From Candidatus Bathyarchaeota archaeon (lineage in GTDB: Archaea > Thermoproteota > Bathyarchaeia > Bathyarchaeales > Bathycorpusculaceae): 64,000 nt of DNA. The first letter of the stretch is position 1. Every line of letters begins with the position of its first letter. The notes beneath the pieces are model-generated. The model ran no database searches. It worked only from the letters and a program-made list of their open reading frames with translations, and had not been told where the DNA came from. Below, piece by piece: positions 31,205 to 47,838 of the stretch. Both the position numbers and the translations under genes were made by a program. Location: contig CAWHDT010000001.1 in assembly GCA_963828195.1 (NCBI GenBank), forward strand, positions 128,001 through 192,000, read 5' to 3'.

Positions 31205-31328
31205 TTTACTTCAGCTTCGCGCCCTATGCAAATATAAAATAACGTTATAAACGTTCCCATCCAAAACAGGAAACCGCCGCAGATTTGAGCATCTAGCCAA
31301 ATTCGCTTTATTGTTTCCCACGGATTTT

Positions 31329-31459
31329 TAAGTTGCGACTTTTGTGTTGGCGTAAGTTGCGACTTTCCGCTCTGGGTCTTTGTGTTTTGGGTTGCTTTTT
31401 TGGTTTGGGGCTTGAGTGCGTTTGCGTGCTGCGACTTTAGGATGGGCGGATGCGACTTT
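31329..31459 (+). repeat. Four dispersed copies of TGCGACTTT (two as TAAGTTGCGACTTT)
   Basis: Copies at 31329-42, 31353-66, 31430-38 and 31451-59 in a G/T-skewed intergenic region. Confidence 0.75.
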
Positions 31460-31723
31460 CCATGTTGGCTTTATGCTGCGGTTATTGTCGGTTTTGGGCG
31501 CGGCGGCTTTCTCTGTCCAGGTTCCGTTTGCTTAGGTTTTGGTTTTCAAATTGGGAAGCGTGGAGGGTTGGCGGCTGCATCTTTCGCAACAAGGGTTAAC
31601 TGTATGCTGTTCAGTTCGAGGGCTTTAAGCGTTGATTAACCATCACACCCGTGCACCCCTCCCGCAGCCTGCAGCCTCCGTTAGAAAACATTTTTACATC
31701 CCAAACACAAATCCTATACCTGC

Positions 31724-31853
31724 GCCGGGGTGGCAGAGTGGTTAATGCGCCAGCCTCGAGATCCAAATTTGCACAAAAGGGGCTGTGCCAAAATCGACAA
31801 GCCAGCTGGTGGGCTTCGCGCCCGCAAGGGTTCGAATCCCTTCCCCGGCGCCA
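31724..31853 (+). tRNA. tRNA-Ser(CGA) with 43-nt intron at 37/38 (31761-31803)
   Basis: Acceptor GCCGGGG/CCCCGGC, G discriminator + CCA; anticodon stem CCAGC/GCTGG with loop CT CGA G^A; long variable arm GGGCTTCGCGCCC; T arm AAGGG-TTCGAAT-CCCTT. Confidence 0.93.
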
Positions 31854-32024
31854 ATTTTTAGAGCTAATTTCAAGGCTATTTTATAGAAAGGAGCATGATT
31901 TTGCCTTATTTGGCATTGCCCAGAAAAAGGTTAAAATTCGAGAAGCATTTTTTACTAGTAAAAGTTGAGCGAATTCGCAACTTAGTTCTATTCAGGACAA
32001 ATATCGTTCGTTATAGAATTTAGT

Positions 32025-32159
32025 CGGTGAAGCCGCTGGGTCTAAGACCCAAAAAGGGTTCGGAACTTTTTATATTACTGGACGGGGGAAACTAGCACCA
32101 ATTTACCAGTAAAACCACAGAGCTATGTTCCAATTAGTGGAACCGTTGGGATTTGAACG
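32025..32159 (-). repeat. Three inverted degenerate tRNA-3'-end/att scars
   Basis: Minus strand: GGGTCTTAGACCCAGCGGCTTCACCG (32025-50); TGTGGTTTTACTGGTAAATTGGTGCTAGTTTCCC (32086-32119); CGTTCAAATCCCAACGGTTCCACTA (32135-59). Confidence 0.6.
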
Positions 32160-32323
32160 TGCACTCTTGTTGAGTTCACCAAAGGGTTTCTCTTTTCTAA
32201 TTAAAAATTCAAGGCAAGAATCTCATTTTCTAATATTTTGTTTTGAGTTCTAAAAAGACTTTGGAACTCTAAGTGTAATAACTGCGCCAGCCCGTTGCTA
32301 ATTTGATTGGTTTGTAATTAGTT

Positions 32324-33145
32324 TCAGTTCTTGCTGTTAGTTTTCTTTTGGGTCTTGGTTGGAGTTGCTGTCGCCCATTTCATTTTGAAATAATCATGCA
32401 AAAGTTCAACAACGTCGCAATTGTTTGACCATATGTCTGGAGCCCCGGCGTATGCTGATTTTGCCGATGTGCTTAGTCTTATTTCTTTTCCGTCGTAAAT
32501 CCCAAAATTACCTGGAAGAGGGAGCGGGAGAGTTCTAACTTCAAAACAATCAGATTTGTCTAAACCCTCTAATATTTTCTTCAGCTCGATTTCATTTTCA
32601 CTTTGCTCAGTGATAATTTGGAAGCTGACTTTTCTCTCAATTGCTTTGTTAAATGCTTTAAAAGAATTTGTCAGTACTGGTCCAAGCTTTTTTAAAGGAA
32701 TCATTAAGAGCATTTCTTCTTTCGCGCTATCCAATGCTTTGGCTCTTTCGCGGATAAGCATCTCTTTTTCAGGAATCAAAATGAATTGATTAAGTTTTTC
32801 TTTAGAGACATTCTTTTCGAAAGTGTTGTACTTTTCAATCAAAATATCTGCTTTTTCAGATAGTTCTGACTGGTCTTTTCTCTTCCTCTGGAGCAGCATC
32901 GATAGGGCGTCAAAAATTGGTATAGCGGTAAACTCATTTGGCGAGGCGACAATTTTTTTAGCTAAACCTAAATCTTGGAGTTTGGAAATCGTTCGATACA
33001 CATCGGGTCGTGAAACACCGGAAACTTTGGCAATTTCAGGCGCCCTTGATGAACCATTCATGACAAGCGCTAGGTAAACTCTTGCCTCTGTGATCGTTAA
33101 TCCTAATCTAGAAATTGTCTGGGCATCTTCGTTTCCGTTAAGCAG
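32324..33145 (-). CDS. TrmB-family transcriptional regulator (probable CTG start at 33145)
   Basis: The frame stays open upstream of ATG 33061 and encodes the TrmB N-terminus LGLTITEARVYLAL, then EIAKVSGVSRPDVYRTISKL.DLGL; C-terminal PLD-like domain (FGIYDGKE). Confidence 0.85.
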   Translation of the reverse strand: MLNGNEDAQTISRLGLTITEARVYLALVMNGSSRAPEIAKVSGVSRPDVYRTISKLQDLGLAKKIVASPNEFTAIPIFDALSMLLQRKRKDQSELSEKADILIEKYNTFEKNVSKEKLNQFILIPEKEMLIRERAKALDSAKEEMLLMIPLKKLGPVLTNSFKAFNKAIERKVSFQIITEQSENEIELKKILEGLDKSDCFEVRTLPLPLPGNFGIYDGKEIRLSTSAKSAYAGAPDIWSNNCDVVELLHDYFKMKWATATPTKTQKKTNSKN

Positions 33146-33275
33146 AATAAAGCCCCATTGTTCAAGTATTAATTAACAATTAACAATATACTTCTTGCAG
33201 GGATTTATCTTTTTTCTCATTATTCTATTTATAACCAATATTTTGCGTGATGGCTTTATAATCGTGTGATTTGAC

Positions 33276-33306
33276 GGTGGGTCACCCACCAACAAATGCT
33301 TTATAC
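33276..33306 (+). promoter_or_regulatory. Perfect palindrome upstream of TATA box; candidate TrmB-binding site
   Basis: GGTGGGT-C-ACCCACC at 33276-33290; CTTTATAC at 33299-33306; lies between the divergent TrmB and secreted-protein genes. Confidence 0.6.
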
Positions 33307-33377
33307 TCCCCTAAAACTATGTTTTATTACTTATTTTTGAGCGTTTTTAAACAATAGACATGAAAGGATGAAAAAAC

Positions 33378-34439
33378 ATGAAGAAAATACAAATCCTAAC
33401 AATAGTATTTCTAATTTCGTTAGCAATCTCCGCATTCGCGGGCATACAAGTCAAAGCTCAACCAAATACGTATCCAGTGACTTTTTTTAGTACAGGTCTT
33501 GGCTCTGATGCTACTGGGAACTTGATGACTTTCATGGTTACTGGCGGTTCATATTCTGGTGCTTCTAGTCCGATTGCCGTGGCTGGCGGTCCTGGCCCGG
33601 TTGACGCCGGTTCCATCCTTGTTGACATTACCGCAATAGTTACAGTGACTTTCGTTGATCCTATTCCGAGTACTATCCCTGGTGAACAGTATCGACTTAG
33701 CAGCGTTGATGGCAATGTTACCGGCAATCCTTCCTCAATTCTTAACATAGCTGATGGTGCCCTTCAAATTGTTACTGCTAACTATGTGCTTCAGGACAAT
33801 GTGGTCTTTACTGCTTCAGCCAACGTCCTGGGCGATAGTTCCGCAACGATTGTCACATCTGACAGTTTCTCCTACACCTTGGGCGTAAACACCGCTGGAA
33901 CTACTATGGTTAGCAGTGCCTCCTATGCTGCATCTGCTTTGCCCTACAAAGTTTGGGTTGACGACAGCACTCCAATTGCCTACAGTTTTGCAAGTCCTGT
34001 GGCTTCTTCTACATCGCCATCTACTATTCAGTATGTTTGGAGCAGCACCAGTGGGCTTGATATGTCTCAGTCGGATTCTTTCACTGTTCTTAGCCCAGGC
34101 ACGGTTACCGGCAACTATGTGTCTCAGGCTCCCTATTCTGGTCTTTCACCTGGGTTTTGGAAGCACAACATTGGCGTTTACTGCGGGACAAGTCCGGGAA
34201 GTTACAGCTCTCCACAACCAGGTCTGCCACATGAAACAGCCGCATCAATGCTATCCCTTGCCACGACAATTCTATCCACACATCCCGCCGGCGTGCCTCC
34301 AACTGTAACAACTGCATCTGATTTCCTATTCTGGGCTGACACCCAAATGAACAATCCAGCACTGAAAAACGTGGCCCCAACTTGGCTCACTATTGCCAAC
34401 TGGTTCAACGCAGCAGCAGGTTATACTCCATACCCATAA
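33378..34439 (+). CDS. Secreted S/T-rich protein with two beta repeats and C-terminal SPGFWKH-motif domain
   Basis: Signal peptide MKKIQILTIVFLISLAISAFAGIQVKA; two similar repeats (V.F...LG.D......VD.....F..P..S....QY...S..G). Confidence 0.8.
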   Translation: MKKIQILTIVFLISLAISAFAGIQVKAQPNTYPVTFFSTGLGSDATGNLMTFMVTGGSYSGASSPIAVAGGPGPVDAGSILVDITAIVTVTFVDPIPSTIPGEQYRLSSVDGNVTGNPSSILNIADGALQIVTANYVLQDNVVFTASANVLGDSSATIVTSDSFSYTLGVNTAGTTMVSSASYAASALPYKVWVDDSTPIAYSFASPVASSTSPSTIQYVWSSTSGLDMSQSDSFTVLSPGTVTGNYVSQAPYSGLSPGFWKHNIGVYCGTSPGSYSSPQPGLPHETAASMLSLATTILSTHPAGVPPTVTTASDFLFWADTQMNNPALKNVAPTWLTIANWFNAAAGYTPYP

Positions 34440-34690
34440 GTAGCTGACTAAAAATAGCTCTCCTTTTTTCTTTTTGTTAAAAATCTATCTTTTTCCTGAT
34501 AACTTCCGCGCGTGGTTCTTCAGACCCTTTTCCTCCAATTGCCGCCTATTTATTTTTGCCCTTCAGCCACTGAAGCGTACAAGCCTTGAATGGCCTAACT
34601 CTATCGGCCATCTGTTTCTTAGAGTTTGAACCATAAGCAAAATACCAAACCGTGTTCGTCTGAGACTCGATTTTTGTCGGATACGAAACA

Positions 34691-34825
34691 TCATGCCTGC
34701 ACTTGTCCATTTTCAGTATTTCCGTATACCAAGTTTATGTATGTGAACAGTTGCGCAAACGAGATATCTAACATTTGCTGTAAATTGGCTGCTTTTATGC
34801 CCCAAAATCGCTTGCTTCTTTCCAT
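34691..34825 (-). CDS. Possible small protein (44 aa)
   Basis: MERSKRFWGIKAANLQQMLDISFAQLFTYINLVYGNTENGQVQA*, preceded by a perfect GAGGTGA (34836-42). Confidence 0.35.
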   Translation of the reverse strand: MERSKRFWGIKAANLQQMLDISFAQLFTYINLVYGNTENGQVQA

Positions 34826-35191
34826 CAAAGAGTTTTCACCTCTCGCGAATGTTTTTTTGTTAGTTTAATGTTCGGTGCGATAAAAATTACAGTACAATCT
34901 ATAAAGTCATAATAAGCTATAGACATAACATTTATGTTCTCTAGATACTATCATAAAATAAGCAAAATATTCTCCGAATCTTGTTGTAAGAGGCTGAAAT
35001 TCTGTGAAAAAAATTTCTTTAATTAAGGTATTTAAATCGAGCCGAGCTCATAGAAGGCGCGCTTGGTTGCTTACAAAAGCTGTCGTATTATCGAAAGTTA
35101 CAATTAACAAGTCTCTGATCTGGACTATAAGTTTGAAGAAACATGGCGGAATTGAATCAAGGTTTGTCTCGTTAAGGAGGTCAACTCCGTC

Positions 35192-38100
35192 ATGACCCGT
35201 GTGGTTGTAGCAGGATCACAGTTAAGCTCAAAATTCGCAGTAATAGACTTCACGAACCCTAACAATCCAACCGTTGTGAAAACTGACGCTGGATGGCAGG
35301 GGGGTGCTCAAGTCACCTTAGATGGCAGCAACTTGTTTGTGGGCAACCTCCTCACCGGCGAGGTCCAGCTGTATGATGTTTCGAACCCAGCGACGCCGAC
35401 GCCGATGGGAAGCATAACGACAACTCTGAACGGCATAGGAGCAATCGCAGCAAAAGGAAACTTGGTGACGGTTGGAGAGTGGCAGAGCCTATCTGGGGCG
35501 CTGGTTGACTTGATAGACTTCTCGACCCCGAGCAACCCAAACATTATCGGTCAAGCCATAACACCAATTACCACAACCCCTACGACTAGCGGGACTAACC
35601 CTAATCCAGGTGCGATAACTTCAATTGCGTTCTTGAGCAATAATGTCGTAGTAGCCGCTGGGAATGGTCACTACAACGTCGTAGTCGTCGATTTTACGAA
35701 TCCGAACAGCCCAGCCGTCAATGAATTCAATCCATACCTGCAGGGAGCAGGCCCTCAAATCGATGCAGATTCCAAGGCAAATCAGATAGTCGCGGGTGAC
35801 TCTGGTCAAAGTGGAATAATCGAGCTCTTTGACGGAACCTCCCCATATAACAAAATAGGAACAGCGAATACGTCATTAACGGCTATAACGTCAATAGCGC
35901 TATCCCAAGGACTAACAATAGCCGGGAGCTCGTTTGATTTAGGACAGGCAGTACTAGTTGACTTTACCCAGAATCCTGCGACCAAAACGCCGATCACCAC
36001 GATATTCGGCGGCGCGAGCACTGTTGCAATCGACGGGACTACGGGAGCTTGTGGAGATGTCAATGGCAGCACTGTTCAGCTTTTCGACCTCACGCAATCC
36101 CCGCCTGCGCCTTTGGGCAGCATAGATTCCCAGGTCCAATCCATTGGAACCCTTTATACAAAATCGTTCACCGCCCCCGTTCCACAGACTCCCAAAATTT
36201 CCGTTAGCCCGACAGCTCTTGCCTTCGGCAACGTCAGAGTGGGAAGCCCTTCGCAGCTTGTGCTGAAGATCCAAAATACAGGGAACGCGCAACTCAAAGT
36301 AACAGCAATAAAGTCCTCGGACCCTCATTTCGTCCCATCACAGACGGGGCCAGTCAATATTGCAGCAGGACAATCCTCTTCACTTAATATCACTTATACA
36401 CCGACCTTGCAAACGGTCAATAACGCAAATCTGACCATCAATTCGAACGCCGCCAACGGAACGCTAAACGTTCCTCTCTCGGGAACCGGAGGTCTTCCTC
36501 AGATCTCCATATCCCCTACGAGCTTGAATCTGGGGAACGTTCCGGTCTGCGAGTCCGGAACTTCAACGATGATGATTACCAACAGTGGCGGCATCCCTTT
36601 GAACGTGACCTCGATTATCTCCAACAACGGCGCATTTAGCCCGAGTGTCCCGAGTCATACTAGCGCGATTGTTCAGCCTAATGGCTCATTGATAGTTACT
36701 GTAACGTTCAAACCTCAAGCTATAGGAGCGGCGAATGGTGCGCTCACCGTAGCCTCAAACGACCCTACCACGCCTTCGGCAAACGTCACATTGACAGGCA
36801 ACGGATTGCCAACCCCTCCCCCAAGCGTCACGGTAAACCCAACCTCAGAAAACTTCGGCCCCATCCCAGTGAATTATGGTGTCGGAAAAAGAATCACGGT
36901 TGCAAACTCTGGACCCTGTCAGGCGCTTCAAGTGACACTGACATCAAGTGGCCCCCCATTCTACATAACGATAGCTGCCCCGATATCTCTTCCGCCAATG
37001 AACCCCCCCCGTCGTCGATACCATAGGCCCCAACAGCTCTACCCAGTATGTCGTGACCTACTGGCCGACGAAGGTAGCAAACGATTTCGGCACTCTGACA
37101 ATTGCCAGCAACGATCCTGCAAATCCGAGCATCCAGGTTAACCTCTCAGGAAATGGCATCACACTATCACCCATCACCGCTGAGCTAGTACTTGACAAGT
37201 CGGGAAGCATGCAAGGAGCTGCAGCGGGAGGCGTGACCAAAATGACCGCGCTTCAGTCCGCCGTTGACCTCTTTGCCGATCTCGTCCAGACCGGCCAGAG
37301 CAACTCCGTCGGAGCCGTCGAGTTCGACAGCACCTCCTCGGTACTTACTCCCCTTGCATTATATACAGCAACTCAGCAGAGTGGGTTGGAAACCGCCGTT
37401 GGAACCCTCACTCCAGGTCAAACCACCTCTATAGGCGGGGGACTGCAGCTAGGTCAGAATCAACTCCCCACTGGTCAAGCCCCTCGAAACGTGTTAATCG
37501 TCTTCACCGATGGAATGGAGAATACCCCTCCCATGATCGCTACAGTCGAACCGGGCGTCCTTGCAACGGGCAGTCAGATTTTTGCCGTGGGATTGGGTCA
37601 ACCTCAAAACATCTCAAGTCAAGCACTCGCCGAACTCGCAGCCAGCAGTGGTGGTAAGTACTTCCAGACCGATGACACTCTTGTACTCAAAAAAGATTTC
37701 GTTGAGGTGCTCGCAGACGCATTCGCCAACAATCTAGCCGCAGACCCAATCATCACGCTCACCCCAGGACAAGTTTCAGACACCCCCGTTTCGATAACCA
37801 CATGTGAGCAGAGACTCACATTTACTCTGAACTGGGATAACCCATTGTTAACCCTGGCCTTGAGCATAATTGCGCCGGACGGCACGACCTATTCATCCAC
37901 ATCTCCTGGGAACAACCTCTTGGTCAGGTATGGCAGTTGACCCGGATACATCTATTATCAGATCGCCCTCCCCCCAATCGACCCCGGCTCCGGACTCGTA
38001 ATAGGGCCAAGAATCGTTGGCAACTGGATCATGCGAATAAACGCAGTTGGCTTGGCCAGCTCCTCCGAACGGTGTGCGACCACAGTCATGGTAGAAAGCA

Positions 38101-38576
38101 TCCTGAAAATGAGCTCTCAAGTCAATCTAGTTGACGCCGACACTCCAATGCAAATCTCCGCCCAACTCCTTAAAGACGGGGCCAAAATCACAAACGCACA
38201 AATACTCTTGTCAGTGATGGCACCTCTAAAGTCACTCGCAGCCACCATGACACCCGCGGTGGTTTTGCGAGCCAGGCAGGCCGACCAGCATCCTATAAAC
38301 GCTGGACAACCTCCGATGATTCCGACTGTAACCCATAAATACCGCCTCAAACCGAATCAAGATGGCATATTCCAGATAGAATTACCACCGCAAATCATCG
38401 ACGGTATCTATAAATTAACATTAGAAGCCACTGGCAGCGCCTGCGGCGGGCAGTTCCAGCGTCACGCAACTCAAAGCGTGTACTTGGGGAGTCGTAAGGC
38501 GCTTTATACCCGTCCCGAAGTGGCGATACCAGCTACACCAATCCTCACGAAAACCACAAATACTGTGCCCCTATAA
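35192..38576 (+). pseudogene. Large LVIVD-like repeat / ASPM-SPD-2-Hydin (choice-of-anchor D) Ig repeat / vWA protein interrupted by a frameshift and an in-frame TGA
   Basis: ORFs 35192-37141, 37053-37940 and 38031-38576 join: one extra C in C8 at 37003-37010, and TGA at 37938-40 followed in frame by PGYIYYQIAL...MRINAV. vWA MIDAS DKSGSM, TSIGGG, FTDGMEN. Confidence 0.8.
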
Positions 38577-38936
38577 CGCTCAAATGGGCTCTCTCAATAG
38601 TCAGTCTAAATTTGATCGATAAATCGACGATTTGGAAACCCCCAGTCGCCCTCTTGAATCTAAATTTGAGTATGCTTTTTAGGGTGAAGGATTTCGACTC
38701 AAACGATGCTGTTCAGGGTAATTCATTAAACCATAAAACCGTAACTGACGCCTCACATAGGGATTGGAACCAAAAGAAGTTCTGAAACCCGAATTCTTGA
38801 ATGGACAACTGTGGAACCACTTATGGCTCTTCTACATAAAGAATTAGTCCCTTGACTTAAGAGATTAGAACATTGAAAACGGTAAGTCTCTAATTGGACT
38901 TGCCCCCAAACAAAGTATAAGTCAATAGATTGTGGG

Positions 38937-38976
38937 TTTACTAGTAAACTGGGGCTCGAATCCCTTCCCCGGCGCC
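38937..38976 (+). repeat. att-like repeat R1 (palindrome + tRNA-Ser 3' end)
   Basis: TTTACTAGTAAA-CT-GGGGC then TCGAATCCCTTCCCCGGCGCC, identical to tRNA 31832-31852 over 21 nt. Confidence 0.92.
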
Positions 38977-39294
38977 CTCTTGAGGCTTGATTTTGTTACT
39001 TGAAGGATAAGCGAGTAGAAAAGAGTAAAGAGGTTTGATTATCATCGTGCATTAAGGGTTCGCTATCGTTATGGAACAGGCTATTGGTCAGAAGAATGCA
39101 AACGCTTTGGTATGGCGACACTGAAGCTGAATCTGATTTAACCAGAATCTTTTCCAACTCATACCTTTTCTGAGGTCTCAGAATAAAAGTTCGAACCTAA
39201 CAATTGGAAGATTTGTCAACAACCTACACATTTTATATTTATAGATTAAATAGGTTTTAGATAGCACTGCTGTATTTTTTGCCAATGCATTGGT

Positions 39295-39753
39295 TTATGG
39301 AATTTCGTAGAAACCACACAGTACATAAGTATTTTCTAAAGTTTTCATTATCTCTTTTGAATAGTAAATAGGGACAAGGGATTGGCAGCTATTTACTATG
39401 CTTAACTCATCTGACTCCAGCGTGTTACCGTTAATCCTCATGTTAGTGCATATCGCCGTAATCGAGTTATGAAAAAAGAAGTTCAGCCTGTCATTGCCAT
39501 TAATCATTTTTTTCAGTTTTTCGTTAACTTCATTGTCAACTGCAGGGGATTGTCTTGCGTTTTCCTTGAAGAGCGTTCGGTCTTTTATTCCAGTAATTGA
39601 AACACAGTCCTTAGGCAGCAGTGCAGCTAAAATAATATTTGCCTCGCCAACTTTCATGCGTAGATGCATATTAGGAACTAGATTGAAGTAACACCTAACT
39701 ATATTTTCAACGGCATTTTGAGCATTCATGAAAATCACAAATCTTGAGGTCAC
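39295..39753 (-). CDS. Hypothetical protein
   Basis: 152 aa ORF inside cassette 2, divergent from the Lrp gene; no recognised motif. Confidence 0.5.
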   Translation of the reverse strand: MTSRFVIFMNAQNAVENIVRCYFNLVPNMHLRMKVGEANIILAALLPKDCVSITGIKDRTLFKENARQSPAVDNEVNEKLKKMINGNDRLNFFFHNSITAICTNMRINGNTLESDELSIVNSCQSLVPIYYSKEIMKTLENTYVLCGFYEIP

Positions 39754-39942
39754 TAAGGCTCCGAAGCACTAAGCAAGTTATCAAGATATATGTATAAGCT
39801 TTTCGTGCTATTGTAAAAAAAACCAAAATAAGTGGAATATATGCTCAATAAAAGTTTACTAAATTGGTTTTTCTGTAGAACATTGAAGCAATAATTCGTT
39901 CTTAAATGAATACATTAATTAGCTACTTCAAAAAATGAAGTT

Positions 39943-40929
39943 TTGATGACAAAAGGAATTGATGTAATAAACGCTAAAATTCTAAAAGAACTGCTCAAAG
40001 ACGGACGAAAAAGCTTTGTAGAAATTGCGAAAGAGTGCAGCACATCAAAATACGTCATCGCAAAGCGCTACAAACAAATGAAGAGCAGGGGCATTATAGT
40101 CGGAGCACCAATCCAAAATAGCCCTGCTTGTTATGGTTGCAACCTGACTGCAGACATCCACATCTACACTCACCCTGATAAAGCGGACTCTCTACCTGAA
40201 CTGATTTCTAAAATTCCGCAAGTCTTTGCCGTTTATCACATTGGAATAAACCCAAGTTTAGCGACCATAGTGATAATGAAAAACATAAAGGAATTGGATC
40301 AAGTCAAACAATCAATAAAGAAACTGCCGTTCATTTTGGGAGTCGACACAAAGGTTTGGACGGGTATAAGAAACATTCCAGATAATTTATCGGTACTAAC
40401 GCTTCAAGAAGCAACTGGCAAAGCTGAGAATGAAAATGTAAATGCAAAAAACTCAATCGAAAAATTAGCGATTAAAATTGATGAAATAGATAGTCGGATA
40501 ATTGAAAAACTAGCAATAAATGCGCGCATGCCCTTTAAGACAATCGCTACGGAACTGGGAGTATCAACTGACACTGTGGTAAGAAGATATGAAAGACTGA
40601 AGAAAAACGGCGACCTTAAGGTGGTAGTACAAATCAACCCAACAAAAATAGGGTATTATGCTTATGCCACTTTCAAAATAGCTGTTATGTCTCAAGATAA
40701 TTTGCCTGATAAGTTAGAGAGCCTCGCCAAGATTCCAGATGTCAATAACATACTTAGAACAAGCGGCAATTTTGATTATATGATAAGTTTGATGGTAAGG
40801 GATATAAAACAGCTGACAGCCATTAAAGAAGAAATCGCCAGTATGCCTGGTGTTACAACTATGGAAACAAACGTAGAAAAACTGTTCAGCGTTTGGCCCC
40901 TTCCCAGAGAGTTCATATCAACAGTCTAG
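39943..40929 (+). CDS. Tandem (double) Lrp/AsnC transcriptional regulator
   Basis: Two HTH-RAM units: ID.I..KIL.EL.KDGRKSF.EIA and IDEID.RII..L..NARMPF..IA.ELGVS..TV.RR. Confidence 0.92.
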   Translation: MMTKGIDVINAKILKELLKDGRKSFVEIAKECSTSKYVIAKRYKQMKSRGIIVGAPIQNSPACYGCNLTADIHIYTHPDKADSLPELISKIPQVFAVYHIGINPSLATIVIMKNIKELDQVKQSIKKLPFILGVDTKVWTGIRNIPDNLSVLTLQEATGKAENENVNAKNSIEKLAIKIDEIDSRIIEKLAINARMPFKTIATELGVSTDTVVRRYERLKKNGDLKVVVQINPTKIGYYAYATFKIAVMSQDNLPDKLESLAKIPDVNNILRTSGNFDYMISLMVRDIKQLTAIKEEIASMPGVTTMETNVEKLFSVWPLPREFISTV

Positions 40930-40962
40930 TTTTATTTCAATGATTTAAGCACAATAGATTAA

Positions 40963-40998
40963 TTTACCACTAAATTAGGTTCGAATCCCTTCTCCGAC
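40963..40998 (+). repeat. att-like repeat R2
   Basis: TTTACCACTAAA-TTA-GGTTCGAATCCCTTCTCCGAC; also shares upstream CAATAGATT with R1. Confidence 0.85.
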
Positions 40999-41061
40999 TT
41001 CAACAGCAGCTAAGCAACCTTATAGGCTACGTTTGATATCTATTGTGTTAAAGGAATCTTC

Positions 41062-41355
41062 ATGTCTGAAACAATCACTCTAAGATTGCCGCCTCAAACA
41101 GCCAAGAAACTCCAAGAAATTGCCAGAAAAGAAGGCAAAGACCGCTCAAAGCTCATTCGGGAAATCCTCGAGAAGGGCGTCAAACAGAAAAGTATAGAGC
41201 AAGCCGTTGAACTTTACCGAACCGGTCAGGTTACAGCGTGGAAGGCTGCTCAGTTATCGGAGGTTTCGTTGTGGGCATTCTACAAAATATTAGAAGATGA
41301 AGGGGTCACTTTTCAGTATTCTGAACATGATTTAGAGGAAGACTTGAAAACATAA
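41062..41355 (+). CDS. Antitoxin, RHH + UPF0175 family
   Basis: TITLRLP...DRSKLIREIL (RHH); AVELYRTGQVTAWKAAQL (UPF0175). Confidence 0.88.
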   Translation: MSETITLRLPPQTAKKLQEIARKEGKDRSKLIREILEKGVKQKSIEQAVELYRTGQVTAWKAAQLSEVSLWAFYKILEDEGVTFQYSEHDLEEDLKT

Positions 41356-41372
41356 GAGGCTGAAAAACACAG

Positions 41373-41906
41373 TTGCAGACTGTCTCAAACACTAGCCCAC
41401 TTATCTGGCTCGCAAAGATTGGCAAACTCAGCATACTAAAAGAGTTGTTTGGTGAAGTCCTCATTTCAGAACAAAGTTATAAAGAAGCAGTCGAAAAAGG
41501 TTTAGAAGAGGGATTTAGCGATGCGTTGGTAATCAAAGACGCATGCGACCTAGGCTGGATCAAGGTCAAGCATCTTAGTGAGCGCCAAGTTGAACTTTGC
41601 CAGAAAATAACGCGGCACAGTTTTGAACTGCATCTAGGTGAAGCCCAAGCTATAGTTTTGGCACGTGAGATCGGTAAGGATGCGCTTTTGTTGATGGATG
41701 ACTCCAGTGGCCGAGCCTTCGCTGAAACGTGGGGTCTAAAAGTCAAAGGGACACTATATGTTATAATGACCGCGCTGCGAAGTGAATTATTAGATAATGC
41801 GGAGGCAAATGAGACAGTGCTAACTTTAGTGCGGAAAGGGTTCAGAATTGAATCAAAGTTACTGGCAAGAACTATACAAGAAATCGAAAAGTGCACGGAA
41901 CAATAA
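41373..41906 (+). CDS. PIN-domain toxin, DUF3368 family
   Basis: SNTSPLIWLAKIG, LHLGEAQAIVLA, LLMDD, GLKVKGTL. Confidence 0.9.
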   Translation: MQTVSNTSPLIWLAKIGKLSILKELFGEVLISEQSYKEAVEKGLEEGFSDALVIKDACDLGWIKVKHLSERQVELCQKITRHSFELHLGEAQAIVLAREIGKDALLLMDDSSGRAFAETWGLKVKGTLYVIMTALRSELLDNAEANETVLTLVRKGFRIESKLLARTIQEIEKCTEQ

Positions 41907-41932
41907 GCCTATCGGTTTTAATTGATCTTGTC

Positions 41933-41971
41933 TTTTCTGGTCACAGGGACTCGAATCCACTCCCCGGTGCC
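41933..41971 (+). repeat. att-like repeat R3
   Basis: TTTTCTGGTCAC-A-GGGACTCGAATCCACTCCCCGGTGCC, a degenerate copy of the R1 unit. Confidence 0.8.
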
Positions 41972-42003
41972 CCACTTCGAATTAATCGGTTCGCTTAAGA
42001 GAG

Positions 42004-42321
42004 CTATTGAGTTCTGAGCCCGCTGAGTCTCTTGCCGAGTTCGTCGAAGATAATTTGCTTTTTCTCTTTGGTTAAGTTGAAGAGAACTTTGTTAGCCATT
42101 TCATTTGAGATAGTGAAGATATAGTTTAGTTTTATAACGCTGTCTTTTATGGCTCCTTCACTTTTGGTTAGGGGTATTCCTTTCATTTTGAGATTGCTTG
42201 TTATGCCTGCGATCACAACATTGCCAAGCTCTTCAAAAAGAACCACCGCTGGCCGAACTTTTACCTCATCTGTGTCCGTGAACTGCACGCTTGCCAGAAT
42301 AACGTCACCAGGCTTAAGCAT
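42004..42321 (-). CDS. mazF: PemK/MazF family toxin
   Basis: KPGDVILASVQFTD...KVRPAVVL...ITS; start 42321 overlaps the antitoxin stop (alternative 42336). Confidence 0.9.
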   Translation of the reverse strand: MLKPGDVILASVQFTDTDEVKVRPAVVLFEELGNVVIAGITSNLKMKGIPLTKSEGAIKDSVIKLNYIFTISNEMANKVLFNLTKEKKQIIFDELGKRLSGLRTQ

Positions 42322-42547
42322 CTTCCCAAGCCTCATCCTCCTCGTTACCCCATAATTCTTTCATCTTCGCCTGCTGAATCCTGTGGAGAAACTCGTCGTA
42401 TTGCCTACTCTTTCCAGATTCTTTCGCAGTTTTTATTAAAGTCAAGATTGTTTCGTTGTAGGTTTCTCGCGGGTATTTCCTGATGTTTTTTAGTTCTTTA
42501 ACTACTGATTTCTTAAGTTGAATGGTGGTAACATCTTTGTCTGTCAT
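42314..42547 (-). CDS. Putative antitoxin (archaeal VAPB/DUF7557-like N-terminus, acidic LW..EEDEAWE tail)
   Basis: TTIQL...L...RKYPRETYNE.I; directly upstream of and overlapping mazF. Confidence 0.8.
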   Translation of the reverse strand: MTDKDVTTIQLKKSVVKELKNIRKYPRETYNETILTLIKTAKESGKSRQYDEFLHRIQQAKMKELWGNEEDEAWEDA

Positions 42548-42620
42548 TATAGGCTCGCTATAAGTATCTATGACGCATTATAATATATCTGTATCGCCAA
42601 GCTGCCTTAATTAAAAAATA

Positions 42621-42671
42621 GGGACTTCGGGTTCGCAGAGATTCGAATTTCTTCTCCGGCACCAATTTTTA
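42621..42671 (+). repeat. att-like repeat R4 (long copy including variable arm and 3' trailer)
   Basis: GGGACTTCGGGTTCGCAGAGATTCGAATTTCTTCTCCGGCACCAATTTTTA vs tRNA 31811-31860 GGGCTTCGCGCCCGCAAGGGTTCGAATCCCTTCCCCGGCGCCAATTTTTA. Confidence 0.85.
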
Positions 42672-42840
42672 AGTGTTTTCTGGGACGTTTCGGCTAAATA
42701 GTGACAATTTCTGGTTATGTAGAAACACCTCCGAAACAATCGAAATCTGGAGCAAAATTTTGCAAATGAAAAATATGAAAAGTGCGCGCCAAGAAAAGGC
42801 GACGCGGCATTGAACGATTTTTGTGAGTACAGAGATTGTT

Positions 42841-44556
42841 TTATTGGCTTCTGGAGTTTGCTCTGTTCGCTGCCATTTGCTTTCTCATTTGTTCGAGGGC
42901 TTTTTGGTCAAGGTAGTATTTTCCGTTGACTTCTTGGAAAACTTTTGTTTGTCCTGCACGTCTCTCCATGAAATCTTCAAATCGCGGCGGCAAGCCAAGT
43001 TGTTCGGCGGTCATGGCTTTTTCTGGGATAGTGGCTCCTTTCTGCTGGAAAGTGCTGACCAGTCGGCGGAATCGCTCTATACGCTCTTGTTGGCTTAGTA
43101 GTCTCTGCTGTGTTTGCTGAGTGGGTTGGGCGGCTTGGGTTGGGGTTTGTTGCGTCTGGATAGTTGGTGGTGGAGGTGCAACGTTAGGTTGGTTTGAAGT
43201 CACCTCGCTTTCTTCTGCTGCGCCGCTTCCATCATCGTTGTTTTTTGGATTTGAGGTGCTGACGCTTGATGAGCTAGCTGATCCTGCTGAGCTTCCAACT
43301 GCTCCACCTGATCCTTTTCCTCGTGTAAACTTGAAACCTACAATAGCAACGACAACTACGACTGCAACGACTCCGATGATTATGAACAGAAGACTGTTGG
43401 AGCTTGATGAGGGTGCGGTGGATGATGCGGGGGTGCTTGTTGGAGCTGAGGAGATAGCGGGGGTTGAAGTTGCAGTGGTTGAGGTTCCAGTGGCCGAATC
43501 CGACAGATATGAGACTGCGTTGGAGCCACCGTCAACTATGAATATCTCGCTTTTTGCAGAATCGTAAGCTACACCTAGTGCAAGGGGTCCATTGGAATCC
43601 GCACTTATTGGTAACTGAACAAGAGGAGCATACGCCACAACGTTGTTGCTTGAATCGGATATTGCAACGATGTAGGTGCCAGTTTCTTCGAATATTTCGG
43701 CCTTGCTAGTATCATAGGTTAAATCTGTAGGATTTCCTGAGTAGGTTGCAGATGCCAAGGTGTTAGTTGCGACAACGGAGTTGGAGCTATCAGATATTAC
43801 TTCGAACCCGCCGTCAACCTCGTCGGCTACGTATATTTCTCCTTTAGTTGAATCGTAAGCTAGCCCTTCTGGACCGTTTCCCGCGTTCACGGTTTTAACC
43901 ACCTGATTGTTGCTGTCTGTTATTACGGAAACGGTGGATGACAATTCGTTGGAGACAAATATTTCGTTTTTACCTTGATCATAAGCGACGCCGATTGGGC
44001 CGACTCCTACGGTTATGGTTGCTATCTCGGTGTTTGAGCTATCTGAGATGACTGAAACTGTGGATGGCGGAGGATTGGATTCTTGACTAGCCGCGTTATA
44101 ATTGGAATTTGCTACGAACAACTCGCCTTTTCCAGAATCATAAGCGATACCTTCGGGGCCTATTCCCACTGTAATGGTTTGAACTACAGAGTCAGAGCTG
44201 TCTGATATGACAGCTACCGAGCCATTGGTTGAGCCGTCGCCCTCATCAGTTACAAACAACTCTCCCTTCTGAGAATCATAAGCGATACCAGTGGGATATT
44301 GCCCTACTCCGCTTATAGTTTGAACCACTGAATTAGAGCTATCAGATATGACCGAGACTGTGCCGCCGCCCTGATTAGTTACAAATATTTCTCCTTTTAC
44401 AGAATCATAGGCAGCGTATTCTGGACTGCTCCCAACTGTTATTGTTGGTGGAACAGAAAGCTGCGTGACAGCGTGAACCATATTGGCCGCTGACAGGGCA
44501 AAAACCACAATTAATAAGGCACATAATAGTTTCCAAACTTTGACTTTCATAAACAT
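42841..44556 (-). CDS. YVTN/YncE beta-propeller cell-surface protein with TM anchor and cytoplasmic C-terminal domain
   Basis: Signal peptide; about 7 repeats TITVG..P.GIAYDS.KGE.FV.N....VSVISDSSN; S/T linker; TM LLFIIIGVVAVVVVVAIVGF; about 160 aa cytoplasmic tail. Confidence 0.9.
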   Translation of the reverse strand: MFMKVKVWKLLCALLIVVFALSAANMVHAVTQLSVPPTITVGSSPEYAAYDSVKGEIFVTNQGGGTVSVISDSSNSVVQTISGVGQYPTGIAYDSQKGELFVTDEGDGSTNGSVAVISDSSDSVVQTITVGIGPEGIAYDSGKGELFVANSNYNAASQESNPPPSTVSVISDSSNTEIATITVGVGPIGVAYDQGKNEIFVSNELSSTVSVITDSNNQVVKTVNAGNGPEGLAYDSTKGEIYVADEVDGGFEVISDSSNSVVATNTLASATYSGNPTDLTYDTSKAEIFEETGTYIVAISDSSNNVVAYAPLVQLPISADSNGPLALGVAYDSAKSEIFIVDGGSNAVSYLSDSATGTSTTATSTPAISSAPTSTPASSTAPSSSSNSLLFIIIGVVAVVVVVAIVGFKFTRGKGSGGAVGSSAGSASSSSVSTSNPKNNDDGSGAAEESEVTSNQPNVAPPPPTIQTQQTPTQAAQPTQQTQQRLLSQQERIERFRRLVSTFQQKGATIPEKAMTAEQLGLPPRFEDFMERRAGQTKVFQEVNGKYYLDQKALEQMRKQMAANRANSRSQ

Positions 44557-44872
44557 TCCTCAACATATTTTTCTGAAACAAACTAGATGTACTGAATTGT
44601 TTATTCATGCGTAACCTTCCCCACAAGCGGGTATATTTTTTGGAATTTAAAGCTTGCGCTAGCCTGATTCCATTAGGTTCAAGTAATTCACCGTCCGCTT
44701 AATATGTAAAATTTTTATAAAGTATAGATTAGTAAAAAGCAAAAAAAATCAAATTTTAATAAATTCTGATACCCTCCCAAAAAATGGCAAGTAATCAATT
44801 GCAGGTAATCTTCTATATGTTGGTTGAAATAATAGTCTTAAGTGATGAGATCGTGAAGCGTCTCTACCATCT

Positions 44873-44904
44873 TGGTGGCTCTGCTAGGTTTGAACCCAAT
44901 TTTT
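44873..44904 (-). repeat. Inverted degenerate 3' end of a different tRNA
   Basis: Minus strand AAAAATTGGGTTCAAACCTAGCAGAGCCACCA: T-loop-like plus ACCA end, back-to-back with R5. Confidence 0.6.
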
Positions 44905-44912
44905 AGGCTCTT

Positions 44913-44953
44913 GTTATCGGTAAATTGGGGTTCTAATCCCTTCCTCGGCGCCA
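44913..44953 (+). repeat. att-like repeat R5 (distal border of the array)
   Basis: GTTATCGGTAAA-TTG-GGGTTCTAATCCCTTCCTCGGCGCCA; 24/26 identical to tRNA 31828-31853. Confidence 0.9.
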
Positions 44954-45101
44954 AACTCGCATGCACCGCATCTCCAAAGACTCGATTTTTCGGCAACCAT
45001 TATGCTCAAAATCAATACTCAATGAATCACAGCAGATTTCCATAATGTTTTTCTTCTCACAAGACGAAGGCTTGTAGTTGCATATCCTGAAGTGGAATTA
45101 A

Positions 45102-45642
45102 ATGGTGGAAAATACGGTGAAGGACCCTGGCCCAATCTGGATAAGCCGAGAATTCGCAAAATGCAGCGGCTGCCGCAAATGCGAGATCGCGTGCTCTCTG
45201 CATCATGAAAATAAAATCTGGCCTGAAGCCTCAAGAGTTCGCGTGTTCATGCCTAGTTCCAGGCACAGAATTCCCTCATTTATGCACTCAATGCGAAGAT
45301 TACCCGTGTGTTAGAGCTTGCCCCTTTAAAGCTCTGGATATAAACAAGGAAACCAGCGCAGTAACCGTTAACGTGGACAAGTGCAAGGGCTGTGGCAAAT
45401 GCGTGGATGCTTGCCCGGGGAAAGTTCCGCATGTTCACCCAGAGAGTAAGAAGATTTTGATCTGTGACTTGTGTGGCGGAGATCCGAAGTGCGCCAAAGT
45501 ATGCCAAGAAGGCGGCTGGAACTGCTTAAAAGCGGTTGACCGTGGAGATCACGAGTTCAAACTTTATGCGCGTATCCCCGAGGAGACTGCAAGAAACCTC
45601 GCCACTAAGTTGTATGGCGAGAAAGCGGAGGAGTTTTTCTGA
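45102..45642 (+). CDS. 4Fe-4S dicluster ferredoxin-like subunit (AOR partner), apparent frameshift near 45252
   Basis: CSGCRKCEIAC (45102 frame) continues as CTQC..PCVRACP, CKGCGKCVDACP, CDLC...PKC...C (45205 frame); removing one C in ATGCCTAGTT joins them. Confidence 0.85.
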
Positions 45643-47510
45643 TGCTTGGCTACGCTGGAAAATTCTTGGAAGTGGACCTGTCAACTTCAACCGTTAAAAA
45701 CACGACGGTTCCTGACGAGTGGCTAAAAGACTTCATGGGGGGCAGGGCGTTAGCCGTTAAAATCCTAAGCGAAAGATTAATCGATAAATGGGAGAAGGTT
45801 GACCCTCTTGGACCCGAAAACCTGCTGTTGTTAATGACTGGGCCTTTCACAGGGTATTTTCCAGGTGGTAGAACATGCGTCACAGGCAAATCGCCCCAAA
45901 GCAACGGCGTAGTTGGCTCTACGGTCGGCGGCGAATTCGGAGTTGAGCTTAGATGCGCAGGTTACGACGGCGTAATAGTGTCGGGAAAAGCTGAGAAACC
46001 AGTTTACCTGTTCATAAAGGATTCTGATGTGGAACTCAGGGACGCCGGCGACATCTGGGGCAAAGATGGCAAACAAACCGATGCCTTGTTGAACCGCGAA
46101 TGCCGACGCTTGCTGTCTGAGCGCTACCCGCACGTGGGTGTTTGGAAGGAGCCGGCTAAACTTTACATTGGACCTGCTGGTGAACGGAAAGTTCGACCCT
46201 CGGTTGTTGTGGCTAAATGGACTCACGCTGCAGGTTACGGCGGATACGGCGCAGTTATGGGGTCAAAAAACCTTAAAGCCGTCGCTGTTAAAGGCACGGG
46301 ACCGCTTCCTGAAGTTGCGGATTTGGAGAAAGTCAAGCAAATGATTGATGAAGTCTGCAAAGGCGCCTATAGGAACGTGTTGTGGCGCAGGTGGGGAACT
46401 GGGGGAGGAGGCTACAGTTTCGGAGCCGAAACCAGTTCTGAACCTATTCGCAATTGGCAGGAAGAATGGCATGACCAGAGAAGCTACGGTGTAGACCAGT
46501 TTGAGAGCAAAGTTTGGGTTAAACCTGCATGGAGCGATTTCGGCTGCCCCACAAACTGCTTGAAAATCAGCTGCATCCGCGCGGGAAAATACAAGGGTGC
46601 TATAACAGATAATCCTGATTATGAGCTGCAGGCTTTTCTGGGTCCAAATTTGGGTTTGTTTACACCTGAAGAAAACGTGCATTTGTCCTCGCTTATTGAA
46701 GATTTAGGTATGTGTGGCATCCAAGCTGGCAGCGTAATGGGTTTTGCAGCTGAGCTTTTTCAACGCAGCATCTTAACCAAGGCTGATCTGGAGGGGTTGG
46801 AGTTGAAATGGGGCGACATCGACGCTTTCGCAGCTTTGGCAAAGAAAATCGCTTATCGAGAAGGCATAGGCGACTTACTGGCTGAAGGGACATACCGAGC
46901 TGCACTCAAAATTGGGAAGATGAAAAACAAAAACCTCTTACCCTACACTGTAACAAGCAAAGGCATCAGTATCGGTGCCCACGGCATCAGAAGCGGAAGA
47001 GACTTCTCAAGAGAAATAGGCTACGCCTGCAGCGTTCAGGGCGGCGACCATTCATCCATGACGGATTTGCCCATTGACGGATGGGGCAGTGAGATTTGGC
47101 AAATATTTAACGATTCAGCAGTAATGTGCATTTTCACTTCTTTCAGCATATCACCGAGCTTTAGATATGAATTCTACAATGCCGTGACAGGTCAAAGTTT
47201 AAGTCGCAATGGATGGCTAAACGGCGGAGGAATGAAAACGCTGCAGATACAGAGGGCTCTTCTGCTTTTTGGTGGACCCGATTTAAAGTGGAACCCGAAA
47301 GTTGACGATGATAACCCAGAGAGGTTCTATGAGCCGCTGCCTTCGGGACCATGCAAGGGGCAAGCCGCTGACAGGGCAAGTGTAAAGCAGAAAGTGCGTC
47401 AATATTACGAGCAAGCAGGGTGGGACCAAAGCGGCACACCTACATCTGAGACACTACGCAAACTGAATTTAGAATATGTAGATAAAAACTTAAACAGGGT
47501 AAGAAGTTAA
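45642..47510 (+). CDS. aor: Tungsten-dependent aldehyde:ferredoxin oxidoreductase family protein
   Basis: GYAGKFLEVDLS, KSP, GPAGE, GAVMGSKNLKAV, PDYE, GIGDLLAEG. Confidence 0.92.
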   Translation: MLGYAGKFLEVDLSTSTVKNTTVPDEWLKDFMGGRALAVKILSERLIDKWEKVDPLGPENLLLLMTGPFTGYFPGGRTCVTGKSPQSNGVVGSTVGGEFGVELRCAGYDGVIVSGKAEKPVYLFIKDSDVELRDAGDIWGKDGKQTDALLNRECRRLLSERYPHVGVWKEPAKLYIGPAGERKVRPSVVVAKWTHAAGYGGYGAVMGSKNLKAVAVKGTGPLPEVADLEKVKQMIDEVCKGAYRNVLWRRWGTGGGGYSFGAETSSEPIRNWQEEWHDQRSYGVDQFESKVWVKPAWSDFGCPTNCLKISCIRAGKYKGAITDNPDYELQAFLGPNLGLFTPEENVHLSSLIEDLGMCGIQAGSVMGFAAELFQRSILTKADLEGLELKWGDIDAFAALAKKIAYREGIGDLLAEGTYRAALKIGKMKNKNLLPYTVTSKGISIGAHGIRSGRDFSREIGYACSVQGGDHSSMTDLPIDGWGSEIWQIFNDSAVMCIFTSFSISPSFRYEFYNAVTGQSLSRNGWLNGGGMKTLQIQRALLLFGGPDLKWNPKVDDDNPERFYEPLPSGPCKGQAADRASVKQKVRQYYEQAGWDQSGTPTSETLRKLNLEYVDKNLNRVRS

Positions 47511-47550
47511 ATCTACCAAAAAATAGGCAGAGAATTTTGGGGAAAAAGTC

Positions 47551-47838
47551 TTAGCCCATGAATGTTGGGTGTGCGTCTTCCTCGTTAATGTGGTGCATAA
47601 CATGAATAGCTAGTCCAGTGGCGGCGCCTGCGGAAAGCCCCAAAAGCAAATCGGTGACAGCTGCAATTTGTCCGACTAACCCTAAAACTACAAGCGCATC
47701 GAAAACTAAAGCAACGCCCAAATAACCTGCACACCACATTTTGACGCTCATTCCCCGCGGCTTGTTTATGCCTATGCCGCCTAAGAAACCGAACATAATC
47801 AGGAAGCCGATTAAAGCGAATATCCAATCGTAACTCAA
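47551..47838 (-). CDS. Small three-TM membrane protein
   Basis: 95 aa, three hydrophobic segments; AGGTGA SD upstream of the TTG. Confidence 0.75.
   Translation of the reverse strand: MSYDWIFALIGFLIMFGFLGGIGINKPRGMSVKMWCAGYLGVALVFDALVVLGLVGQIAAVTDLLLGLSAGAATGLAIHVMHHINEEDAHPTFMG

Follow-up and report, generated by a model that had tools for sequence, protein, structure and literature searches.

Tandem units bounded by copies of a tRNA-Ser 3' end in a Bathyarchaeota genome: a probable case of accretion and decay of integrative elements

The window analysed here, 64,000 nucleotides at its full length, is G000:C1:128001-192000, where G000 denotes the source genome, that of a Candidatus Bathyarchaeota archaeon (GenBank assembly GCA_963828195.1, contig CAWHDT010000001.1). 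It contains a tRNA-Ser(CGA) gene that is followed by five partial copies (c1 to c5) of its own 3' end, and these copies divide the downstream region into an array of five units (Table 1). A preliminary description, made from the sequence alone, had compared this array to an integron and had proposed that the units may have been inserted in trans, with the tRNA gene in the role of the attI site.

The tRNA-Ser gene, its 3'-end copies and the units between them

The tRNA-Ser(CGA) gene is interrupted by an intron and is not called by ARAGORN at default settings; it is matched by Rfam model RF00005 at 31724-31850 with 50.4 bits. It lies beside the gene for ribosomal protein L3 (30191-31204, minus strand), at the edge of the genes for ribosomal proteins L2, L4 and L3. 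A search with L3 covered 24 genomes of the same genus, from which 18 regions were fetched, and in 11 of these 18 regions a tRNA-Ser gene follows L3 as in G000. The gene is the intact integration target and forms the attL side (att, attachment site) of the array.

A repeat search yielded a single direct repeat family with six members, namely the tRNA end and the five copies. All copies are located on the same (plus) strand between open reading frames (ORFs), with mismatches counted against the 25-nt tRNA end at 31829-31853. If up to three mismatches are allowed, three matches are present in the window and none in 100 shuffled sequences; if up to six are allowed, five matches are found in 31854-44953 and none in 300 mononucleotide shuffles. 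The five direct, variably decayed copies of the preliminary description, with two to six mismatches in 25, are thus confirmed, and so are their position between genes, the unit sizes of 7.1, 2.0, 1.0, 0.7 and 2.3 kb for units 1 to 5 and, by Pfam, the gene content assigned to each module.

All five copies agree with the tRNA in the T-arm and the acceptor strand and diverge from it 5' of the T-arm. The match of c4 extends over 50 nt (78%) and includes the variable arm, and c4 also keeps AATTTTTA, the stretch that trails the tRNA itself. Upstream of its core c1 has an AT-rich hairpin, TTTACTAGTAAAC, at the place where the tRNA has a GC-rich variable arm, and the left part of c5, GTAAATTGGGG, is an AT-rich hairpin resembling that of c1; this AT-rich left part recurs in three relatives (G019, G004 and G003). 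A common T-arm and acceptor strand combined with differing left parts would look like the pattern expected of attR junctions formed with different attP sites. Related copies are present elsewhere in the genus: a c2-like variant is situated 1.9 kb from the tRNA in G016, and a degenerate orthologue of c5 precedes the ferredoxin gene in G019 and G004. Inside the units of G000, no further degenerate copy scored above the 99th percentile of random windows.

Between the start of the L3 gene and the tRNA, positions 31322-31460 hold four copies of TGCGACTTT, and a T/G-rich stretch at 31377-31415 is where many metagenome contigs are broken. The assembly has another gene for tRNA-Ser(CGA), at G000:C2:42707-42829, whose intron measures 35 nt; this gene may be a genuine duplicate, part of an element or a contaminant (the tool puts contamination at 3.5%).

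Table 1. Features of the tRNA-Ser array and its right flank (positions in the window).
Feature	Position	Strand	Basis or remark
tRNA-Ser(CGA), 43-nt intron, CCA encoded	31724-31853	+	ARAGORN with introns (-i)
Unit 1 (7.1 kb)	31854-38952	both	Pfam, ORFs
Unit 1: TrmB-like regulator	32324-33061	-	Pfam
Unit 1: 353-aa protein, no family	33378-34439	+	Pfam scan
Unit 1: Ig-like ORF, 649 aa	35192-37141	+	Pfam
Unit 1: vWA ORF, 295 aa	37053-37940	+	Pfam
Unit 1: 181-aa ORF	38031-38576	+	ORF list
Copy c1	38935-38977, core 38953-38977	+	2 mismatches in 25
Unit 2 (2.0 kb)	38978-40977	both	GC 0.362 vs 0.44 for the window
Unit 2: truncated AIPR gene	39295-39753	-	Pfam, profile positions 1-91 of 308
Unit 2: double Lrp/AsnC regulator	39943-40929	+	Pfam
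Copy c2	40978-41002	+	4 mismatches in 25
Unit 3 (~0.95 kb), toxin-antitoxin pair	41003-41947	+	Pfam
Unit 3: RHH/UPF0175	41062-41355	+	Pfam
Unit 3: DUF3368	41373-41906	+	Pfam
Copy c3	41948-41972	+	6 mismatches in 25, most decayed
Unit 4 (~0.7 kb), toxin-antitoxin pair	41973-42621	-	Pfam
Unit 4: PemK/MazF	42004-42336	-	Pfam
Unit 4: antitoxin	42314-42547	-	Pfam
Copy c4	42622-42671, core 42640-42664	+	core 5 mismatches in 25
Unit 5 (2.3 kb)	42672-44928	-	Pfam, ORF
Unit 5: NHL-repeat surface protein, transmembrane-like and low-complexity tail	42841-44556	-	Pfam
Copy c5	44929-44953	+	2 mismatches in 25
Ferredoxin	45205-45642	+	Pfam
Aldehyde:ferredoxin oxidoreductase (AOR)	45642-47510	+	Pfam

Unit 1 opens with 470 bp that lack any ORF of at least 60 amino acids (aa). 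Its Ig-like, vWA and 181-aa ORFs (35192-38576) overlap or abut one another and look like a single surface-protein gene that was broken by frameshifts or by assembly errors; a one-base insertion after 37002 in one X2 contig does not restore the Ig/vWA reading frame. The combination of a TrmB regulator with a large surface protein is a recurrent cargo of other att-bounded units. About 68 kb beyond c5, at G000:C1:237391-241602, the tRNA-Ser(CGA) end recurs in two copies, inverted relative to each other and with 4 and 2 mismatches. The genes between them code for a TrmB-like regulator and for a PQQ/Ig-like surface protein of 884 aa, a cargo like that of unit 1, and this segment may be a displaced piece of an array. 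The truncated AIPR ORF of unit 2 stops 317 bp from c1, at the place that is occupied by the integrase in the Bathyarchaeia family treated below.

On the right-hand side, core genes had been thought to resume directly after the last copy, and this has to be revised. The ferredoxin and AOR genes (45205-47510) are found only in G000, G019, G003 and G004, and, as judged by homology, the stretch 44954-47550 still belongs to the genus-level variable region. The flank that is conserved genus-wide begins at 47551 (homology start 47543-47555), which is the end of a conserved minus-strand gene; no att copy was found at this border, which merely coincides with the end of that gene.

Integrases and turnover of the locus in related genomes

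That the array is devoid of an integrase, as the preliminary description had it, was borne out. Neither in the array nor beside the tRNA was a tyrosine integrase detected by a six-frame search with PF00589 at E<=1 or by tblastn with the integrase of the relative G013 at E<=10 (no SSV-type model was run). The six PF00589 matches in G000 are located on contigs C3, C5, C6 and C7, none of the six within 4.7 kb of any tRNA. An intact cognate integrase was not found in G000: tblastn with the G013 query retrieved only a fragment of 79 aa of the cognate type on C9 and, on C3, a paralogue with 31% identity.

From the lack of a recombinase it had been inferred that the units may have been inserted in trans. 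This step is not supported by the relatives, in which a cognate integrase, apparently intact, broken or truncated, is present right after the tRNA or its copies, nor by unit 2, which starts with a truncated gene at the integrase position, nor by the source genome, in which a cognate integrase in intact form is missing. The integrase of G013, a protein that matches PF00589 with 70.6 bits and is convergent with the tRNA, ends 40 bp from tRNA-Ser; it is apparently intact and comprises at least 292 aa, its N-terminus being cut by the contig end. Directly after tRNA-Ser or a copy there are a frameshifted integrase pseudogene in G011, integrase pseudogenes at two loci in G045 and a 154-aa integrase fragment in G066. 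In the same position, a 2.5-kb unit with exact copies in G059 contains 110 aa of an integrase, and G001 has a weak remnant of 26 aa (E 0.004).

The cognate integrase has 408 relatives, nearly all of them from genomes titled Bathyarchaeia or Bathyarchaeota, and the following counts refer to the best 80 of these 408 in Bathyarchaeia species-representative genomes. A convergent tRNA gene is located 28-93 bp past the integrase stop at 60 of the 80 loci. At six loci only a T-loop-like fragment follows the stop, at six nothing was found within 300 bp, at six the contig ends, and at two the C-terminal match is lacking. Nine out of ten integrases with at least 82% identity reside at tRNA-Ser(CGA); other targets are tRNA-Cys (21), tRNA-Arg(CCT) (6), tRNA-Ala(TGC) (5) and more, at least ten besides Cys, Ser, Arg and Ala. 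The choice of the target tRNA tracks integrase similarity, and the Bathyarchaeia family forms a conventional integrase-tRNA system.

The tRNA-Ser locus is subject to turnover within the genus and, in line with the expectation of the preliminary description, the unit content of related genomes differs there, often at att copies. The tRNA is separated from a conserved gene for a 703-aa protein by ~1.5 kb in G070, by 1.8 kb in G012, by 2.7 kb in G001 and by 16 kb in G000, and the genes of the intervening stretch are unrelated. In G019, whose L3 is 95% identical, the tRNA is followed by the first 19 bp of a unit of the unit 3 type, the last 170 bp of its DUF3368 gene, a degenerate copy and ferredoxin; this is a toxin-antitoxin (TA) unit with an internal deletion. 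G004 has an intact version of the same TA unit, followed by the same degenerate copy and ferredoxin. In G024 the order is tRNA, unit 3-type pair, copy, unit 4-type pair and then the conserved gene, and in G045 the tRNA is followed by three units of 4.2, 2.2 and 3.3 kb, whose copies have zero to one mismatches, and then by an integrase pseudogene.

Run data were available as assembled Logan contigs of four runs with fragmentary cover. In one contig, with a depth of 21 in X1, position 31870 is joined to 41020 and position 41050 to 45034; the joints do not coincide with the att borders, and the contig does not represent an excision product but a relative whose array is reduced. Neither circles nor precise excisions were found in the contigs of the four runs, with their fragmentary cover. 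Likewise, a clean empty site for the small units at tRNA-Ala and tRNA-Thr/Leu could not be read in five close relatives, in which the loci are rearranged and mosaic.

Copies of tRNA ends are not confined to tRNA-Ser. When G000 was scanned with the last 24 nt of each predicted tRNA, within 30 kb and with the tRNA 5' ends as control, 15 same-strand copies were found downstream and none upstream of their tRNA, three were on the other strand, and the control gave one match. Besides the Ser(CGA) array, copies bound small units at ten tRNAs, of which the Val(CAC) case (5 mismatches, 19 kb) may be due to chance. By Pfam, these units contain PIN plus a small ORF at tRNA-Ala, DUF433 at tRNA-Met, a HicB-like protein plus a nucleotidyltransferase at tRNA-Thr, an archaeal ATPase at tRNA-Asn, a TIG-domain protein at tRNA-Val and an AAA ATPase at tRNA-Leu. 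Among the tRNA predictions for G000, a tRNA-Leu with a 951-nt intron at G000:C7:257869-258912 (ARAGORN) is probably an artefact.

At G074:C1:383500-407500 (L192/L193), two exact 24-nt copies are 21.7 kb apart. The N-termini of the ORFs between them resemble, by eye, enolase, phosphoglycerate kinase and pyruvate kinase; pairs of copies do not always delimit an island.

Small toxin-antitoxin units

Single TA units between copies of tRNA ends, to which the preliminary description had drawn attention in units 3 and 4, recur at other places. Homologues of the unit 3 pair (57-79% identity) were examined at 17 other loci of the genus. A tRNA or a tRNA-end copy is present on both sides of the pair at four of them (G024, G004, G063 and G042), and tRNA-like sequence on one side was seen by eye at four. 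In G024 the order is tRNA-Ser(CGA), 61 bp, TA pair, 49 bp, copy; in G042 the pair resides at tRNA-Ser(GGA) and is accompanied by a copy of the tRNA-Ser(GGA) end. Among metagenome contigs with full flanks, 5 of 27 have tRNA-type direct repeats on both sides of the pair, for instance a 45-nt repeat with one mismatch beside an intact tRNA-Ser(CGA) in L135 and a repeat of 26/26 in L141. Att-bounded units of this type are 943-1066 bp long, and in units 3 and 4 as well as in many similar TA units the gap between genes and copy measures 16-171 bp on both sides. The unit 3-type units share a conserved AT-rich upstream sequence that is TATA-like and palindrome-bearing and looks like a promoter and operator of their own.

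Another direct repeat of about 50 bp, which is not of tRNA type and starts with GTGCCGTCATCATTCTCCA, is present on both sides of the unit 3-type pair at three of the 17 loci (L065, L066 and L068) and only upstream of it at two (L069 and L070); these five loci are from G001, G012, G058, G059 and G045. Rfam gave no match for this repeat, which does not occur in the window and may be another type of att site.

Homologues of unit 4 (70-92% identity) are present in 27 of 60 other genomes of the genus, and att-like flanks were recognised by eye at 4 of 23 other unit 4-type loci that were inspected. In G016, the 1.9 kb after the tRNA consist of two PIN TA pairs split by a degenerate copy, which scores 28 (in 300 random windows, the 99th percentile is 23), and in G063 one of the two pairs occurs by itself with a copy at either end. 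Nine att-bounded units of at most 1.1 kb were found without a TA query, eight of them with TA-family genes and one with an EVE-domain gene (in G000 units 3 and 4 and the units at tRNA-Ala, tRNA-Met and tRNA-Thr; two in G016; one each in G063:C24 and G070). The unit 3-type toxin does not follow its host: L3 of G004 is 96% identical and the toxin 71%, and L3 of G024 is 85% identical and the toxin 79%.

A composite arrangement is present at L228 (G016:C8:206836-210252), where a unit 4-type MazF pair, an exact copy of the tRNA-Ser(CGA) end, a HicAB pair and, in opposite orientation, a copy of the tRNA-Thr(GGT) end follow one another in this order. The att scars of two tRNAs thus lie side by side, and the HicB part is 81% identical to that of the tRNA-Thr unit of G000.

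Accretion and decay, and comparison with known systems

The view, already implied in the preliminary description, that the repeats were left behind by site-specific integration into the 3' end of the tRNA is supported. Beyond this, we consider it reasonably probable that the array arose by tandem accretion of conventional tRNA-integrating elements, which decayed to remnants resembling cis-mobilizable elements (CIMEs) and are inert in this genome. The locus would be an integration hotspot for the tyrosine integrases of the Bathyarchaeia family, which presumably recombine with the tRNA 3' end from the T-arm to the CCA. Every integration would rebuild the tRNA and displace the earlier 3' end downstream as a partial copy, and further integrations, either at the tRNA or at a copy already in place, would lead to five tandem units. 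The integrase would subsequently have been lost from the units, at least unit 2 presumably being a deletion derivative, and the cargo that survived would be either useful or hard to lose, such as regulators, surface proteins and the two TA pairs. With the integrase lost and the cargo kept, the units would therefore be att-bounded, integrase-less remnants. CIME-like features are indeed apparent, as every unit is bounded by copies and has no similarity to integrases; a trace of a parent element was found for none of units 1, 3, 4 and 5. That the units of G000 each once had, or rode with, an integrase, as well as the order of events, we infer. The array is probably a fossil in G000, because the copies have drifted by two to six mismatches in 25 and an intact cognate integrase is lacking.

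Several observations weigh against accretion and decay. Integrase remnants inside each unit had been named in the preliminary description as the sign of ordinary decayed elements; they are present at unit heads in relatives, but none was detected in any of the five units of G000, the 470 bp after the tRNA included (PF00589, tblastn). The three units of G045 are likewise free of any integrase trace, though the next element there keeps a recognisable pseudogene. The margins of 16-171 bp of the TA units are not predicted by random deletion; the compactness of the genomes and the limit of 350 bp within which att flanks of TA pairs were searched, however, also bias towards such tight margins. Finally, the idea that a TA pair is usually the last survivor at the end of an element is unsupported, since no TA pair was found beside the distal att copy of the large elements in G011 and G062 (n=2).

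It is conceivable, if rather doubtful, that the small units, chiefly the TA pairs of about 1 kb, are non-autonomous modules that have one att site when circular and are excised and inserted, at tRNA 3' ends or at copies already present, by integrases of the family supplied from elsewhere or by a neighbour. Arrays could then grow and be shuffled without any unit ever having owned an integrase. Such modules would account for the unit 3-type pairs that are enclosed by a tRNA or att copies, at 4 of 17 loci of the genus and 5 of 27 from metagenomes, for the PIN pairs of G016 that are split by a degenerate copy and recur singly between copies in G063, for the TA-family genes in eight of the nine small units found without a TA query, for the non-vertical inheritance of the unit 3-type toxin (G004 versus G024) and for the three integrase-free units with near-perfect copies in G045. 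On the other hand, the contigs of the four runs contain only the relative with the reduced array and neither circles nor excised units, a near-identical unit was not found at a second place (80% identity is the highest for another unit 3-type copy), and the sequence from the att copy to the TA promoter is not conserved among units. Homologous TA pairs also exist without att flanks, namely at 4 of the 17 loci of the genus, at 21 of the 27 from metagenomes and at most loci of the unit 4 type, and compact genomes would show tight margins anyhow. Minimal size is not a property of units 1, 2 and 5, unit 2 is truncated, and G000 is without an intact cognate integrase. The data on TA units fit discrete integrase-less modules that move between tRNA ends, and they also fit the selective survival of addictive genes in compact genomes. 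We would only tentatively suggest that TA operons of about 1 kb, and perhaps other units of one or two genes, are the smallest integrative elements known, each with one att site that mimics a tRNA and with movement in trans or in cis among the ends of different tRNA genes and att copies already present.

It is very improbable that the copies are no integration scars at all and instead represent chance matches, tRNA pseudogenes from local duplication or the 3' halves of split tRNAs. The T-loop motif is common to many tRNAs, so that weak matches can arise, and split tRNA genes exist in some archaea. However, not one of 300 shuffles gave even a single match, the copies in G000 lie downstream and on the same strand of their own tRNA only (15 versus 0 upstream), and integrase genes abut such copies in relatives. 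The acceptor changes in c2 to c4 would no longer pair with the 5' strand of the tRNA, and the copies begin at the variable arm or the T-arm, not past the anticodon. Split-tRNA halves, tRNA-like processing signals and local duplication were accordingly set aside.

Least credible of all is a true integron or a homologue of it, with an integrase by an attI-like site, promoterless cassettes, folded attC sites and a common promoter: the layout of short units closed by a repeat, TA pairs among them, is superficially alike, but each defining feature tested contradicts the analogy drawn in the preliminary description, as there is no integrase in the array or beside the tRNA, the closing repeats are T-arm/acceptor ends of a tRNA and not attC (no attC covariance model was run), both strands carry genes, unit 3-type units have their own TATA-like, palindromic upstream sequence, and the cognate integrase of relatives heads ordinary elements and is convergent with the tRNA.

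If accretion and decay is taken as the basis, the locus illustrates the accumulation of accessory genes downstream of tRNA genes in Bathyarchaeia, a class of abundant and uncultured archaea, and it identifies the responsible integrase family together with its target tRNAs. Should TA units indeed be movable without an integrase of their own, they would constitute a cassette-type gene capture in archaea that makes use of a standard integrase and of tRNA ends. The tails of tRNA genes would then be platforms for cassette capture that work like integrons or plasmids with dif modules and are built on ordinary integrase-tRNA recombination; this would matter to research on mobile elements and could provide tools for site-specific integration. 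If TA units cannot move, what the locus offers is a clear though ordinary case of accretion and decay.

In a literature search at the level of abstracts, no description of such arrays or of the tRNA targets of the integrase family in Bathyarchaeia was found. In other archaea, loss of the integrase after integration, integrated elements without an integrase and tandem integration at one site are described, the absence of the integrase being put down to gene loss in a review (PMC8371274, PMC6563490); for S. islandicus, remnants of 13 insertions at tRNA genes are mentioned (PMC3718332). With the tRNA elements of Sulfolobus, Thermococcales, Methanococcales and Thaumarchaeota, the array has in common the tRNA 3' end as target and direct repeats of the tRNA part as borders. 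The integrase of the Bathyarchaeia family is unlike the SSV type, which splits its own gene; here the gene is whole and situated 28-93 bp from the tRNA.

The closest match is the CIME/accretion model of streptococci with its islands of the ICESt1/ICESt3 type, which has three steps, i.e. integration, decay to an att-flanked CIME without an integrase and accretion of a further element (PMC5704250). As in these CIMEs, integration would have occurred at the 3' end of a gene (there often a tRNA gene), followed by decay to an att-flanked unit and by later integration into an att site. Differences are the archaeal host, the fact that no conjugation genes were seen, the five units in a row and the several single TA pairs of 0.7-1.0 kb.

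Integron cassette arrays, those of chromosomal integrons included, also consist of short units in order, closed by recombination sites, and have TA pairs among them (PMC13108822, PMC4889954, PMC5027507), and a preprint reports integrons with IntI and attC in archaeal metagenome-assembled genomes (10.1101/2022.02.06.479319). The present array is unlike them in that no IntI is found beside it, attC is not present, the cassettes are neither promoterless nor co-oriented and it is the target tRNA from which the repeats are copied. The dif modules of Acinetobacter plasmids are small, include TA pairs, encode no recombinase and are shuffled between replicons (PMC6449649, PMC13141974). Small units without a recombinase, TA pairs and borders formed by recombination sites are shared with the array, and we regard this as a functional analogy only: dif modules have XerC/D sites in alternating orientation and use the Xer recombinases of the host, whereas the units at tRNA-Ser are bounded by direct copies of a tRNA end and were likely served by an element-borne integrase.

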